From contig VXMQ01000109.1 in the NCBI GenBank assembly GCA_009841015.1, positions 1,767 to 65,766 on the forward strand: a stretch of 64,000 bases of DNA, in the 5' to 3' direction. Position numbers and translations under genes: made by a program. A model generated the notes under the pieces. That model saw only the letters and a program-made list of their open reading frames with translations, did not search any database and was not told where the DNA came from. This document shows positions 49,443 to 55,092 of this stretch, piece after piece (within the stretch, counting starts at the first letter, position 1; every line of letters begins with the position of its first letter). The stretch comes from Candidatus Palauibacter denitrificans. GTDB taxonomy: Bacteria; Gemmatimonadota; Gemmatimonadetes; Palauibacterales; Palauibacteraceae.

Positions 49443-50081
49443 ATGTTCCACGGGGCGAGGCACGGCTGGATCGAAGTCGTCGCCGGCGTGATGTTCAGCG
49501 GCAAGTCCGAGGAGCTGATCCGTCGCGTGCGGCGTGCCCTCATCGCCGGCCGGCGGGTGCAGCTCTTCAAGTCGCACCTCGACGACCGCTACGGAGGCCA
49601 ATTCCGGATCTCGTCCCATGACGGTCGGGAGATCGACGCCGAGCCCGTTTCCAATTCCGTTCAGGTCGCCGAGAAGGTCAGCCCGTCGACGCAGGTGGTC
49701 GCCATCGACGAGGCCCAGTTCCTGGACGATGGCATCTGCAAAGTCGCCGACGCGCTGGCGGATGCCGGGATGCGCGTCATCGTGGCCGGCACCGACATGG
49801 ACTTCCGCGGCGAGCCCTTCGGCCCCATGGGGCCGCTGCTGGCGCGCGCGGAGCGGATCGACAAGCTGCACGCGATCTGCGTCGTGTGCGGCGATCCGGC
49901 GACGAGGAACCAGCGCCTCATCGACGGCGCGCCGGCCCCCGCGGAGGGACCGACGATCCAGGTGGGCGGCGCCGAATCCTACGAGGCCCGCTGCCGTCAT
50001 TGCCACGAGGTGCCGAAGCGGGACCGGGCGCAACGGGAACTGCTGTTGAAGCGGGGGAAGGAGAAGTGGGAGGGAATCTAA
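49443..50081 (+). CDS. tdk: Thymidine kinase
   Basis: P-loop [20 protein letters not shown], and the C-terminal zinc-ribbon cysteines (CVVCG...CRHCH) typical of Tdk. Confidence 0.9.
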
Positions 50082-51986: not shown

Positions 51987-53057
51987 TCAGGCAGCCTCGT
52001 CGTCTACAGTTGACAGTATTCTTCGCCAGTCGCCCGACAGGCGCGTCAGCTCGTTCGCTTGAACCCAGACCTGTCCTCCGGCTCGCTGAACCTGGCCATA
52101 GGCCCAGCGAGCGATCTGAAGCGTCGCCCGCCAGTTATGGAGAACCCGTCGCTCCTCGAAGCCGGCCTGCAGTTCGTCCCGGCAAACGCGGTTCCGTTCC
52201 GTCCAGCGTTCGAGGTGCTCTTCCGCCGCGAGGAGGTCCGACTTGCTCGAGTTACACCCCTGGTGGGCCAGTACGAAGTTGTGTCCCAGGTCGAGCGAGT
52301 ATCGTCGCCACGGGATGAAGTGGTCGACATCGCCACCGGACTTGATGTCGCTCTCGCAGTAGAAGCAGCGGCCCCGCTGCACCGCCCTGAGGAGGGGACG
52401 ATAGATGTCAAGCGCGGTGCGTTGGGAGCCGAAGAGGAACGACCGCAGGTCGACGACCTGGCCCAGACGCTGAGGGTTGAGCCGCTGGACGAAGTGCGAC
52501 CATGCTCCCTCGATCACGTCGGTAACCAGAGGATAGAACACCCGAAAGCAGTAGGCGACGCCGGATTGTAGCCGAACCGACCCGCCTCTATCGACGTTCT
52601 CGTACAGGAACTCGAGGCGTTCCGACCCGACCGTCTGCAACTTCCAGAGCGGCATCTTCCTTACCGTCTGCTCCACCCTGCGCCGGAGGTTGTCCCAATC
52701 CGGGCGGCTTCTCTCAAGCTCGACCAGGGAGCCCTGGTAGCGGTTGTGGTGCTCGGCCAACTCGCGGACAACCAGTGCCTGTCGGCCCGTGTTCTGGTGC
52801 AGGATCCCCGCGTTTTCGCCGGCGGGGTAGGGTATTGCCTGAGGCCAGTACAGCCGCACGAACTGTTCGGCAATTTCGGCGGTGGACAGTTCAAGTTCGT
52901 CCCCACTGTCGTCACCCTCGACGAGGCACAGGTCAGCGATGGCATGGAGCAGCGCGAACTTGTAACTGGACGTGAAGCTGCCCTCGTCGAGCAGGCGCTG
53001 GAGCGACCGGAGAAACTCGAGCTGCCCTTCGGCTGTCGGCGGCCGTGGCTCGTTCAT
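51987..53057 (-). CDS. HNH-nuclease domain protein with an uncharacterised roughly 250-aa N-terminal domain
   Basis: 356 aa from the internal ATG (MNEPRPPTAEGQLEFLRSLQ...). C-terminal His-Me finger: CFYCESDIKSGGDVDHFIPWRRYSLDLGHNFVLAHQGCNSSK (CxxC ... DH ... H ... N). The N-terminal domain (FTSSYKFALLHAIADL...) is not recognisable to me. The ATG overlaps the upstream gene stop (ATGA). This patch is visibly lower-GC than its flanks. Confidence 0.75.
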   Translation of the reverse strand: MNEPRPPTAEGQLEFLRSLQRLLDEGSFTSSYKFALLHAIADLCLVEGDDSGDELELSTAEIAEQFVRLYWPQAIPYPAGENAGILHQNTGRQALVVRELAEHHNRYQGSLVELERSRPDWDNLRRRVEQTVRKMPLWKLQTVGSERLEFLYENVDRGGSVRLQSGVAYCFRVFYPLVTDVIEGAWSHFVQRLNPQRLGQVVDLRSFLFGSQRTALDIYRPLLRAVQRGRCFYCESDIKSGGDVDHFIPWRRYSLDLGHNFVLAHQGCNSSKSDLLAAEEHLERWTERNRVCRDELQAGFEERRVLHNWRATLQIARWAYGQVQRAGGQVWVQANELTRLSGDWRRILSTVDDEAA

Positions 53058-54253
53058 GAGTCCCAGTACGCAGCGTGCTCGGGCAGGACCCAGCGAATCC
53101 CGCCTCTCGGGTCCGCCACATCTCCCTTGAAGCGGGGGATCACATGTATGTGCGCGTGCCCCACGGTCTGGCCGCCCGCCCGCCCCTCGTTGATCCCCAC
53201 GTTGAAGCCGTCGGGATTGAGTTCCGCTTGAAGCCTTGCCCTCACGCCGGAGACGAGGCTCCATATGTCCGCCTGGACCTCGTCATTTCGGGCGAAGAGG
53301 GTCTCCGTGTGCTCTCTGGGGACTACGAGCGTGTGGCCGCGGCTCACCGGATACCGGTCCTCGACCGCGAGAGCATGCCGCGACTCGGCAACCACGGATT
53401 CCCTGGGCACATCGCAGAAGGGGCAGTCGGCCTCTTGGACGGCGGCACCGCGCGAACTGGCGGTAGCCTCCCGGGTTTCTCGAGGCCACCAGATCATCCC
53501 TTCCATTAACTTCGTTTCATCTCGAGCTGCGGTCAGAGCGGAGATATCGTCCACATGGCGGCTCATGACCACGGCGGACACCGCTGCGTCGAAGGCGTCC
53601 TCGGACGACATGGCCTTGCACGCGAGTGAGCCCTCTATTTCTGGCAGTCCCTGATCCAGATACGCCTGCCGCGCATCGAAATCGGACTTGTTCACCGGGC
53701 CCGTGAGCAGTCGCGGGTAGATCTCGATCACCAGTGGCATCCGCACTTCATGAAACGGCCAGATCGAGAAGCCCGCCGCGCGGAGCGTTGGCAGGTGAGG
53801 CATTGCCCGGATCGAGCCGGTGCCCACCGCACCGCCGCCGCCGATCTGGAACACGCTCTTGGGATTCGAACCCGTCCTCCCGGACAAGTCGCGTTCGGTG
53901 CGCCGAAAATGGTGGCGCAGCTTCGGCTTCCCCTTTCCCGGTCTTCCCCAGAACGGGGGCGGGCAGCTGCTTAGCCATTCTTCTCCCTGGGTGGAGACGA
54001 CGTCCCAAAGTTCTTCTATCGATGTCGCGCCCAGGTGCTCGGCGAACCAGAGGGGGAAGGAGAACCCGAAATCCAGGCCAACCACCACATCGGAGTCCGC
54101 CGCCGCGTCGTCGATCAAGTGGCGGATCAATTCGCCGCGGTCGCGGCCGGACTCCAGGCGAGCCAGGCGCCCGTCCCGTACCTCGGCGAGCCAGATCTTC
54201 GACGACGCCCCCGATTTCGCGCCGGACCAATCGACGGCGATGGCGCGGGTCAT
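53054..54253 (-). CDS. Fusion protein: N-terminal RNase-H-fold (RuvC/YqgF/DUF429-like) domain plus C-terminal HIT (histidine triad) nucleotide hydrolase
   Basis: 399 aa. The N-terminus MTRAIAVDWSGAKSGASSKIWLAEV resembles the first beta-strand and catalytic Asp of RuvC/YqgF-like RNase-H-fold proteins. The C-terminus has the HIT signature GQTVGHAHIHVIPR (HxHxHxx). Its ATG overlaps the upstream gene stop (ATGA) and its stop overlaps the HNH gene start (ATGA). Confidence 0.75.
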   Translation of the reverse strand: MTRAIAVDWSGAKSGASSKIWLAEVRDGRLARLESGRDRGELIRHLIDDAAADSDVVVGLDFGFSFPLWFAEHLGATSIEELWDVVSTQGEEWLSSCPPPFWGRPGKGKPKLRHHFRRTERDLSGRTGSNPKSVFQIGGGGAVGTGSIRAMPHLPTLRAAGFSIWPFHEVRMPLVIEIYPRLLTGPVNKSDFDARQAYLDQGLPEIEGSLACKAMSSEDAFDAAVSAVVMSRHVDDISALTAARDETKLMEGMIWWPRETREATASSRGAAVQEADCPFCDVPRESVVAESRHALAVEDRYPVSRGHTLVVPREHTETLFARNDEVQADIWSLVSGVRARLQAELNPDGFNVGINEGRAGGQTVGHAHIHVIPRFKGDVADPRGGIRWVLPEHAAYWDS

Positions 54254-55092
54254 CGCCGTCCCGCGCCAGGAATGTGGGGGCCTCGGGCGTTCGGACGAGG
54301 TCCGGCGCGGAGGACGTTGACGGGGGCCAGGTCGGGGTGGCGGCAGGCGGCGAGGCGGAGGATGAAGGTGTCGACGAGGGCGTGCTGGCCGGACAGGCTC
54401 GCGTGGCTGACCATGTCGGTGAGGACCATCCAGGCGGAGAAGGGCGGGAAGCGGATCTCGCGCCAGGTCTCGTCCCGCTCCTGGAAGGCCGGCGTGTCCT
54501 TCATGTAGTTGTGGAAGCGCCGCATGAGACGGTCGTACGGACTGGAGTCGGCGAGCACCGCCTCACCCAGCCCCGCCTTCGCGATCCCCCGCAGCAGGCG
54601 TCCGCGGAGACGGTCCACGGGGCCCCGCGCGAGCGAGCCGCCGTCCGCCACACCCGCCTCCGTCCCGTAGAGGGCGAACACGTCGGGGAACGTCCCCTTC
54701 GTACACCACACGCGGTCCTCGTCCGGGTTCACGTTGACGAAGAAACGGAGGATCCGGTCGCCGTCGGTCGCCCCGTAGGCGCCGGCGTCGAAGTGGATGA
54801 GTTCGTTGCTCGCGTGCGCGGCGAGGCCGCGGCCCCGCTCCTGAATCGGGCGGAAGCTTGTCGTCCCCACCGTCCACCCCTCGGTGAGCGCGGGCAGGCA
54901 CTCCCGCAGGAAGGCGCGAACCCTGGCGCCGTGCGCAGTGAGGGTGTCGAGAACGGCATCCCGCAGCCCTCCCTGCGACGCGACGCCGCGAAGACGCCCG
55001 CTCTCGGGGTGGTAGCTGACGTTTTTCGCGCGCAACTGCCGCGGCAGTTGCGTCCGCAGCCGCTCGAGATCCGCGTGCGGCGGGAGCTCCAC
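54250..55092 (-). CDS. Hypothetical protein, possible Fe(II)/2-oxoglutarate-dioxygenase-like (Kdo-hydroxylase/DUF2257-like); first gene of the coupled triplet
   Basis: 280 aa from a GTG. A HxD...H arrangement (LIHFDAG ... VSHASLSGQH) is compatible with a 2OG-oxygenase facial triad. Composition is protein-like, unlike the overlapping 640-aa plus-strand shadow ORF. The assignment is weak. Confidence 0.45.
   Translation of the reverse strand: MELPPHADLERLRTQLPRQLRAKNVSYHPESGRLRGVASQGGLRDAVLDTLTAHGARVRAFLRECLPALTEGWTVGTTSFRPIQERGRGLAAHASNELIHFDAGAYGATDGDRILRFFVNVNPDEDRVWCTKGTFPDVFALYGTEAGVADGGSLARGPVDRLRGRLLRGIAKAGLGEAVLADSSPYDRLMRRFHNYMKDTPAFQERDETWREIRFPPFSAWMVLTDMVSHASLSGQHALVDTFILRLAACRHPDLAPVNVLRAGPRPNARGPHIPGAGRR

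Follow-up and report, generated by a model that had tools for sequence, protein, structure and literature searches.

Stand-alone fusions of a winged-helix domain or a sulfur-binding domain (SBD) to an HNH nuclease are modification-dependent restriction enzymes (PMC11037411, PMC6224610). [quoted passage not shown] A HIT protein, ThsC, accompanies the signalling system Thoeris II (PMC8565338). A Cas9-like HNH core is present in PtuB of Septu and retron I-A and in PDC-M01B. To our knowledge, no coupled HIT partner is known for the SBD-HNH enzymes, and none of the wH-HNH enzymes has been described with an enzymatic partner gene.

Here we describe a locus of Candidatus Palauibacter denitrificans in which a HIT gene overlaps the gene for an HNH protein with an N-terminal domain, termed X, and we report its architecture, the conservation of its catalytic residues, its gene coupling, its distribution and its genomic contexts. 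Read from these sequences, the pair is probably an undescribed restriction-type defence module.

Organization of the locus

The window, that is, the whole stretch of 64,000 nucleotides that was analysed, contains three minus-strand genes, g1 to g3 (Table 1). An earlier note on this DNA had described three such reading frames chained by two ATGA overlaps, and both genes and overlaps are confirmed at the positions given there; the third frame as listed spans 51987-53264, and the ATG at 53057 was taken as the start of g3. The architecture proposed in that note (an oxygenase-like protein, an RNase-H-fold-HIT fusion and X-HNH) holds in all its domain calls. The motifs MTRAIAVDWSGAKSG, GHAHIHVIPR, FTSSYKFALLHAIADL and CFYCES...DHFIPW...HN are all found at the locus. 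The surroundings are also as described: ggt and a gene for a RidA/L-PSP protein flank the locus, and a PIN plus Phd/YefM pair lies 2.9 kb off. GC content is lower across g2 and g3 within the window, and a promoter and terminator scan gave nothing informative. Since operon genes meet most often in a 4-nt ATGA overlap, such a junction is unremarkable on its own.

Table 1. Features of the locus, with positions counted from the first nucleotide of the window
Feature	Position	Strand	Remarks
g1, KdoO-family Fe(II)/2OG hydroxylase paralogue	54250..55092	(-)	280 aa, GTG start
g1/g2 stop/start overlap ATGA	54250..54253	(-)	reads 'cgATGAccc'
g2, RuvC-like nuclease domain + HIT hydrolase fusion	53054..54253	(-)	399 aa
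g2 aa 1-262, RuvC/RNase-H-fold domain	53468..54253	(-)	lineage-specific addition to HIT
g2 aa 285-376, HIT domain	53126..53401	(-)	
g2 His triad H366/H368/H370	53144-53158	(-)	
g2/g3 stop/start overlap ATGA	53054..53057	(-)	reads 'ctcATGAacg'
g3, X-HNH endonuclease	51987..53057	(-)	356 aa, invariant member of the module
g3 aa 1-220, X domain	52398..53057	(-)	helical, putative sensor/DNA-binding, without family model
g3 aa 231-274, HNH catalytic core	52236..52367	(-)	CxxC...DH...HN...H..CN

Conservation and distribution of the pair

What is the conserved unit at this locus? The comparison took in 82 related loci, which represent at least 10 phyla and belong to a larger family of which they are the nearest part; the core that they share is HIT followed by X-HNH. 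By tblastn count 66 of the 82 have HIT directly upstream of X-HNH and on its strand, the two genes usually overlapping by 4 nt or lying no more than about 27 nt apart; the co-occurrence that the earlier note had proposed for neighbourhood comparison is thus seen across phyla. All-against-all clustering of neighbouring reading frames revealed no third conserved gene across the 82 loci; the sole recurrent neighbour is a ScoMcrA-head+NOV_C gene at nine loci. The upstream position is otherwise taken by a small SAM methyltransferase (seven loci), a NADAR protein (two loci) or, once each, an MNT-like nucleotidyltransferase and a PAPS-reductase-like protein. The methyltransferases carry no DNA-methyltransferase Pfam signatures and by sequence look like small-molecule rather than DNA methyltransferases. 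On A. baumannii pPUMA0052_1 the methyltransferase is a 66-aa remnant beside an intact X-HNH, and several X-HNH loci have no recognisable partner; to judge from these loci, the partner is dispensable.

Could the upstream enzyme serve self-protection, in the manner of toxin-antitoxin or restriction-modification systems, by neutralizing a toxic X-HNH enzymatically or by marking self DNA? It is tightly coupled to the nuclease downstream, and the partner classes include NADAR, MNT-type nucleotidyltransferase and methyltransferase, the first two of which are antitoxins in DarTG and HEPN-MNT. We nevertheless regard self-protection as improbable, since X-HNH persists intact with a degraded partner or none, the methyltransferases lack the signatures of DNA-modifying enzymes, HIT is a hydrolase for which we know of no DNA-marking activity, and five unrelated chemistries are unlikely to neutralize one and the same nuclease.

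Relatives of X-HNH occur in at least 578 of 185,579 species genomes, in Gemmatimonadota, Planctomycetota, Verrucomicrobiota, Bacteroidota, Nitrospirota, Desulfobacterota, beta- and gammaproteobacteria, Bacillota, Lentisphaerota, Latescibacterota and Acidobacteriota, with cross-phylum identities of 45-69%. Thirty plasmid records carry X-HNH. Cultured strains of Aromatoleum, Polaromonas, Acinetobacter and Pseudoalteromonas have the pair on plasmids, and on plasmid 2 of Aromatoleum EbN1 it is flanked by IS elements. A phage origin is ruled out by a search of 50,697 phage records that returned no match and by a single match among 2.9 million viral contigs. Within the order, synteny with tdk (thymidine kinase) on the downstream side is common to loci L004, L006-L008 and L012, so that in this genome the pair is no recent island; taken with the housekeeping flanks, this makes a long-resident cellular function possible. 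Such a function might be DNA repair or end processing, with an aprataxin-like HIT acting on adenylated DNA ends together with HNH and RuvC-like nucleases and with vertical inheritance in this lineage, and the numerous Gemmatimonadota homologues (60-98% identity) would suit it. We think this quite unlikely in view of the patchy spread over many phyla at high identity, the plasmid-borne and IS-flanked copies, the decay of g2 at locus L009, and the copies that adjoin BREX, CRISPR and TIR genes.

Defence context and named systems

Compared without a background control, the neighbours of the pair in other genomes include BREX-1, type I-Fv CRISPR-Cas and an ABC-three-component system, which, with the plasmids and IS elements, bears out a defence-island and mobile context. 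At L076 a motif search located a genuine SBD-HNH nuclease 4.6 kb from the pair. As raw counts, the commonest Pfam family among the nearest-neighbour reading frames is HNH_2 (6), with TIR_2 and NOV_C at 3 each; Schlafen-AlbA_2, AAA_21 and ResIII also appear, and type-IV-like nuclease genes are found among the neighbours of X-HNH copies.

The pair corresponds to no named defence system in PADLOC, NCBIfam or Pfam, as the earlier note had supposed; PADLOC and NCBIfam give domain-level matches only (ThsC HIT, the PtuB/Cas9 HNH core and a weak match to the candidate PDC-S44), and the literature searched held no paper connecting HIT with this X-HNH family. Like ThsC (PADLOC PDLC00441), g2 would be a HIT-family accessory gene of a defence system, and its HIT domain matches the ThsC model at the general level of the HIT fold (E=3.6e-11). 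In contrast to Thoeris type II, however, the three genes include no match to ThsA (SIR2/Macro-SLOG) or ThsB (TIR), and the subfamily to which the HIT of g2 belongs carries a C-terminal DPRGG[IV]RWV tail peculiar to it. The best PADLOC matches for g3 are PtuB and PDC-M01B (1e-6 to 1e-5), with which it has the Cas9-like HNH core in common, but only about 60 HNH-core residues align and the X domain is absent from both families. Unlike Septu and retron I-A, X-HNH has no PtuA ATPase or reverse transcriptase partner, and no ATPase is conserved beside X-HNH among the 82 loci.

The X domain and its HNH nuclease

The 3260 homologues of g3 are mostly about 350 aa long, and its AF2 model has a pLDDT of 87. 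Checked domain by domain, the HNH call holds, as do the HIT and RNase-H-fold calls: the single-sequence match to Pfam HNH (PF01844) is below the cut-off (E=1.2e-3, score 19.4 against 21.4), the family profile matches Cas9 HNH at E=1e-4, and C231, C234, D245, H246, H259, N260, H265, C268 and N269 are invariant, which supplies in sequence a beta-beta-alpha-metal core with catalytic His, Asn/His and Zn-binding Cys pairs. The active sites of g2 and g3 appear to be intact. For X, a Pfam search finds no family, no characterised sensor domain resembles it significantly by sequence or by profile, and Foldseek against the PDB matched only the HNH part of g3. Its nearest structural neighbours are DNA-binding winged helices.

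How does X compare with the known readers? Like the SBD-HNH enzymes, g3 is a single effector polypeptide in the range of 300-350 aa that combines an N-terminal helical, winged-helix-like reader with a C-terminal HNH; a defence-island location is common to both, and a true SBD-HNH and ScoMcrA-head proteins are among the neighbours of the pair at some loci. The two differ in their HNH domains, Cas9-like (PF01844) in g3 and HNH_2 in theirs, and in the coupled HIT partner of X-HNH loci. In the precomputed Pfam column, which does show PF26340 for true SBD-HNH proteins, the family has no match among the 120 g3 homologues listed; the local Pfam copy misses PF26340 even on the true SBD-HNH of L076, and its negative for X is uninformative. 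When the X profile was compared by hhalign with an SBD profile built from 33 homologues and ScoMcrA, the probability was 2.9% (P=0.016), so that homology is undemonstrated; the sole segment, which is non-significant, pairs the X helix 'SYKFALL' with the SBD sulfur-contact helix 'HKPLLLL'. Taking H116, R117(K), Y164 and P165 of ScoMcrA as reference residues for the sulfur cavity, the invariant Y32, the near-invariant K33 and the invariant P136 (in 'MPLW') of X resemble SBD 'HRP...YPFW', but hhalign aligns the first motif only, non-significantly, and the putative cavity motifs are 103 residues apart in X against 48 in ScoMcrA. In an SBD-fold test of the X structure, Orc/Cdc6 winged helices scored as high or higher (6.4). 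With PF26340 membership lacking, no SBD at E<=10 when the X profile was run against PDB sequences and none among the Foldseek matches in the PDB, the reading of X as a sulfur-binding domain was not borne out. The 6mA-dependent enzymes resemble X-HNH in the logic of a winged-helix-type reader joined to HNH; theirs, however, are proteins of 224-283 aa in which the winged helix is compact, whereas X, a multi-helix domain of 220 aa, shows no detectable sequence relation to them.

X might alternatively sense a ligand, such as Ap4A/ApnN or an NMP conjugate, that rises in infection or stress and switches HNH on, with the partner, be it HIT, the methyltransferase or the NADAR protein, erasing that ligand and so holding the nuclease inactive, in a nucleotide-gated form of abortive infection. 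The alternative partners all use nucleotide-derived small molecules, the methyltransferases are apparently of the small-molecule type, X has many invariant aromatic, Gln and Asn residues, and a HIT protein accompanies a signalling system in Thoeris II too (PMC8565338). Yet the pair has no conserved neighbour that would make a signal, such as a cyclase, the closest structural neighbours of X bind DNA, and an eraser of an endogenous ligand predicts autoimmunity where the partner has decayed or is absent, precisely the loci at which X-HNH is intact. We therefore hold abortive infection of this kind to be unlikely.

The HIT partner and its RuvC-like extension

The HIT domain of g2 is well above the Pfam cut-off (E=1.5e-20), conserves H366, H368 and H370 within 'GHAHIHVIPR', and bears a family-specific tail, GDVxDPRGGIRWVxP, after the triad. 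Its sequence places it in the Fhit-like branch of the HIT superfamily as a putative nucleotide hydrolase. The fusion of an RNase-H fold to HIT is real in g2, but it is lineage-specific rather than a general property: the RuvC-like domain is present in 16 of the 82 loci, all of one clade (Longimicrobiales/Palauibacter), outside of which HIT stands alone, with a length of about 125-135 aa. The g2 N-domain has an RNase-H fold with conserved carboxylates; D8, E24, D61, D219 and D222 are invariant and, from their positions, may be catalytic. The predicted structure of this domain has only a moderate pLDDT (74.5). Unlike the RuvC, Cce1 and poxvirus Holliday-junction resolvases, this putative nuclease has no Pfam match and is fused to HIT.

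A model for the module

What might the pair do? We tentatively favour the reading that g2 and g3 are the local form of a mobile HIT and X-HNH module, in which X-HNH would be a DNA-reading effector and HIT its accessory. A Fhit-type HIT is translationally coupled to the endonuclease, and the pair is widespread and horizontally mobile. X, helical with a winged-helix-like core, would most likely recognise something about foreign DNA, for example a modification or the state of its backbone, and then direct the Cas9-type HNH domain to cut, as in type IV (modification-dependent) restriction. X-HNH would be a restriction-type nuclease, probably one that senses modifications, and its partner would process nucleotides. 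Since classical type IV enzymes work without a partner, the type IV model alone leaves the conservation of one at about 80% of loci unexplained. The upstream enzyme, HIT at these loci and a methyltransferase, NADAR, MNT-like or PAPS-reductase-like protein elsewhere, may be an accessory acting on a nucleotide-derived small molecule or adduct tied to cleavage; its task may be to remove modified nucleotides or adducts, or else to reset the nuclease, and it would not be an essential antidote. In Longimicrobiales/Palauibacter, HIT would have gained with the RuvC-like domain, its acidic residues intact, a second putative DNA-processing activity. The defence role, the feature recognised by X and the substrate of HIT are what we infer. 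At least 578 species in more than 10 phyla, and plasmids as well, carry the pair, yet it has no family model and no PADLOC or NCBIfam name. If it is a defence system, it offers a testable immune role for HIT enzymes, so far unexplained as ThsC in Thoeris II, and adds a 220-aa sensor domain to the modification-dependent nucleases, whose sensor domains are useful reagents for DNA-modification mapping. HIT, methyltransferase and NADAR proteins replace one another as partners, which amounts to an unusual natural experiment on the role of the partner.

A bolder proposal, which we rate as rather unlikely, is that X-HNH is gated by a nucleotide alarmone or a nucleotide-derived DNA mark, of which the swappable upstream enzymes would be the erasers or writers. 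In a possible sulfur-specific version, X would be a phosphorothioate reader that has diverged strongly, and HIT would desulfurate thiophosphate nucleotides freed by cleavage. Ozga and colleagues are said to have described H2S release by HINT1 in 2010. HINT1 acts on nucleoside 5'-thio- and selenophosphates (PMC8775712). Reading of an alarmone, a DNA mark or sulfur, if true, would be an unprecedented immune logic centred on a HIT enzyme.

The neighbouring hydroxylase

The earlier note had read the 2OG oxygenase, the RNaseH-HIT fusion and X-HNH as one cooperating system. With ATGA overlaps at both junctions the three genes are probably co-transcribed here, but the comparative locus data contradict a three-gene module, and we consider it very improbable: g1 adjoins the pair only in its two closest relatives, L003 and L004, and is missing from 80 of the 82 loci. 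Moreover, g1 is a clear member of the KdoO family (Pfam Kdo_hydroxy, E=1.4e-54), although at 121.8 bits against a cut-off of 300 it is outside the NCBIfam KdoO equivalog NF053719; Kdo_hydroxy comprises Fe(II)/2OG hydroxylases, and an HxD...H site in g1 is therefore expected. It is an unrelated LPS-type hydroxylase that abuts the pair, outside the conserved module, a bystander drawn into the unit by translational coupling alone, which is a lesson for scanning of this kind. The ATGA junction between g1 and g2 is confined to this genome and the near-identical L003, and in L004 g1 and the pair are about 440 bp apart.

The conserved unit is a two-gene pair

Three minus-strand genes stand in tandem in the window: a KdoO-like gene (g1), a fusion of a RuvC-like and a HIT domain (g2) and X-HNH (g3), in which an N-terminal 220-aa domain, X, precedes an HNH nuclease. 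The sequence-only earlier note described these genes accurately: ATGA is read at both junctions (g1/g2 and g2/g3), all the motifs it cited are found in the window, and Pfam, profile and structure-model evidence agree with its domain calls for each gene. Relatives of X-HNH, sought in one genome for each species, occur in at least 578 species genomes spanning more than 10 phyla. We compared 82 loci, namely the best 80 of these carriers plus two metagenome loci. They cover the family at its most similar end, and their ORFs were predicted mechanically in DNA of high GC content. In 66 of the 82, the gene immediately upstream of X-HNH, on its strand, encodes HIT, the junction being a 4-nt overlap or a gap that reaches about 27 nt at most. 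When all neighbour ORFs from these loci were clustered, no further conserved gene emerged.

The proposal that all three genes form one system did not survive this comparison. A KdoO-like gene adjoins the pair only in L003 and L004, the loci closest to the window, and in L004 some 440 bp lie between them. Given this pattern across the 82 loci, HIT and, downstream of it, X-HNH make up the conserved unit; g1 is only a bystander, and a three-gene system is very improbable. g1 belongs to the KdoO family of Fe(II)/2OG hydroxylases (Pfam Kdo_hydroxy, 1.4e-54); its score of 121.8 is far under the NCBI KdoO equivalog cut-off of 300 and we therefore regard it as a KdoO paralogue.

Coordinates of the genes and features discussed (L numbers denote loci carrying X-HNH relatives)
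Feature	Position	Strand	Details
g1	window 54250-55092	minus	280 aa; ORF listing
g2	window 53054-54253	minus	399 aa; ORF listing
g3	window 51987-53057	minus	356 aa; start taken as the ATG at 53057
Conserved HIT C-terminal tail	g2 aa 377-397, window 53063-53125		pLDDT 34-37 (low confidence) in model
PIN-domain toxin (PF01850) and Phd/YefM-type antitoxin (PF02604)	window 57948-58663	minus	4-nt overlap
Thymidine kinase (tdk)	window 49443-50081		a few kb downstream of the pair
ScoMcrA-head+NOV_C gene	L001:6460-7620		relatives in L024, L033, L041, L043, L046, L048, L050, L055
Genuine SBD-HNH phosphorothioate-type restriction enzyme	L076:406-1344	minus	ScoMcrA SBD E=3.7e-7
Broken g2 homologue	L009:4759-6004		truncated RuvC-like ORF and separate HIT ORF
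Methyltransferase and X-HNH, A. lwoffii (L089)	plasmid NZ_CP046295.1 89893-91532		FOB21_RS00445/RS00450
NADAR protein directly upstream of X-HNH	L024:2920-3501		Planctomycetota, E about 1e-54
NADAR protein directly upstream of X-HNH	L035:4017-4598		Planctomycetota, E about 1e-54

An undescribed domain fused to a Cas9-type HNH nuclease

The C-terminal part of g3, a protein with thousands of homologues, is a Cas9-type HNH domain whose catalytic and Zn-ligand residues are all invariant. X matches nothing in Pfam, even at E<=10. A search with X alone returned 1548 representative clusters, nearly all of about 350 aa, so that X is almost always fused to HNH. [quoted passage not shown] Homology to the SBD was nevertheless not demonstrated. 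Precomputed Pfam annotation shows PF26340 in none of the 120 X-HNH homologues listed. A separate, local Pfam copy seems not to call this family: it gave only HNH_2 for the genuine SBD-HNH of L076, whose homologues bear PF26340 and PF13391. An X profile found no SBD among PDB sequences, hhalign against a 34-sequence SBD profile aligned the first motif with a probability of 2.9%, and Foldseek against the PDB matched only HNH. The most fitting description of X is an undescribed helical domain whose core is winged-helix-like.

The enzymatic partner is variable

The C-terminal part of g2, which also has thousands of homologues, is a HIT domain (Pfam 1.5e-20) with the histidine triad H366/H368/H370 within 'GHAHIHVIPR'. 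The N-terminal 262 residues found no match in Pfam and fold as a RuvC-like RNase-H domain in an AF2 model of moderate confidence (pLDDT 74.5); D8, E24, D61, D219 and D222 are invariant. This fusion is a local elaboration: only 16 of the 82 loci, all within the clade around the window, have a RuvC-like domain alongside HIT, and elsewhere the HIT protein measures about 125-135 aa. L009 and L023 show a split or decayed RuvC-like domain; L009 is a close relative (Candidatus Azophilus) in which the fusion is decaying. A tail following the histidine triad, 'GDVxDPRGG[IV]RWVxPxxAxYW', is strongly conserved in g2 and all stand-alone HIT partners and could not be tied to any known HIT subfamily.

Where HIT is missing, other genes directly precede X-HNH. 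A small class-I SAM methyltransferase does so in L038, L045, L051 and L053 and on plasmids of Pseudoalteromonas (L085) and A. lwoffii; these enzymes are mutually homologous. Methyltransferase and X-HNH form a second conserved pairing. Elsewhere the place is taken by a NADAR protein, an HTH-MNT nucleotidyltransferase (L054) or a PAPS-reductase-like protein (L081), and some loci have no recognisable partner. Neighbour joining places the methyltransferase-linked proteins in two separate groups and the NADAR-linked ones in one, so the partner has been swapped several times.

Partner-independent survival and a possible mechanism

How might such a pair operate? Its reader and HNH architecture, its sporadic, mobile distribution and its genomic company point to a restriction-type defence nuclease. 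The pair EBN1_RS22230/RS22235 on plasmid 2 of Aromatoleum aromaticum EbN1, flanked by IS elements, and PNAP_RS23180/RS23175 on pPNAP03 of Polaromonas naphthalenivorans CJ2 are annotated as 'HIT family protein' and 'HNH endonuclease'. X-HNH adjoins BREX-1 in A. baumannii, an ABC-three-component system in Pseudoalteromonas and a type I-Fv CRISPR-Cas locus in A. lwoffii. In L076, a Gemmatimonadaceae MAG, the SBD-HNH lies 4.6 kb upstream of the pair. A ScoMcrA-head+NOV_C gene adjoins the pair in 9 loci, mostly divergently; its product of about 390 aa, in which NOV_C is restriction-endonuclease-like, could be either a third component that is optional or a type IV enzyme that travels along with the pair. 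Of 127 nearest-neighbour ORFs, the Pfam families seen most often were HNH_2 (6), Plug (TonB-receptor, 4), TIR_2 (3) and NOV_C (3), with Schlafen-AlbA_2, AAA_21 and ResIII also recurring; these counts lack a background control and give no more than an indication. No member of the family occurs in 50,697 phage records, and IMG/VR contains almost none. That the pair is instead a repair operon seems improbable.

X-HNH persists intact where its partner is decayed or missing, as in A. baumannii, where the methyltransferase has shrunk to a 66-aa remnant (L084:6793-6993). This makes it unlikely that X-HNH is a toxin acting constitutively or attacks unmodified self DNA as an R-M-type enzyme would, and a pairing of nuclease with antidote or R-M-like protector is doubtful. 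Such survival favours recognition of a non-self feature, upon which X-HNH would cleave in a type IV-like manner; PMC11037411 argues likewise for stand-alone wH fusions. Every partner enzyme works on small molecules derived from nucleotides, and the signatures in the methyltransferases are those of small-molecule, not DNA, methyltransferases, which argues for an accessory role: the partner might handle nucleotides or adducts tied to cleavage, or tune the nuclease. A ligand-gated abortive-infection nuclease, with HIT erasing the signal, is a less probable arrangement, if one to keep in mind. We read the pair as a reader-nuclease in which the putative reader is new and the presence of an enzymatic partner unexplained; it is undescribed in curated families, defence catalogues and the literature searched.

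The pair in its genomic setting

In the window the pair sits among housekeeping genes. As the earlier note reported, these include gamma-glutamyltranspeptidase (ggt) and an L-PSP/RidA protein, with a toxin-antitoxin pair nearby, here PIN and Phd/YefM genes 2.9 kb off; a PQQ dehydrogenase and tdk also flank the locus. Since several Longimicrobiales genomes (L004, L006, L007, L008 and L012) likewise have tdk within a few kb on the downstream side, the pair is an old resident here. GC content is 0.63-0.665 across g3/g2 (window 52000-54000) against 0.69-0.72 in the flanking genes, a dip compatible with a foreign origin, though within the order the position of the pair is now syntenic. An insertion of ggt between the pair and tdk is confined to the Palauibacter lineage. 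The PIN and Phd/YefM genes occupy the same place in L004 and are missing from L003, and hence represent a variable insertion.
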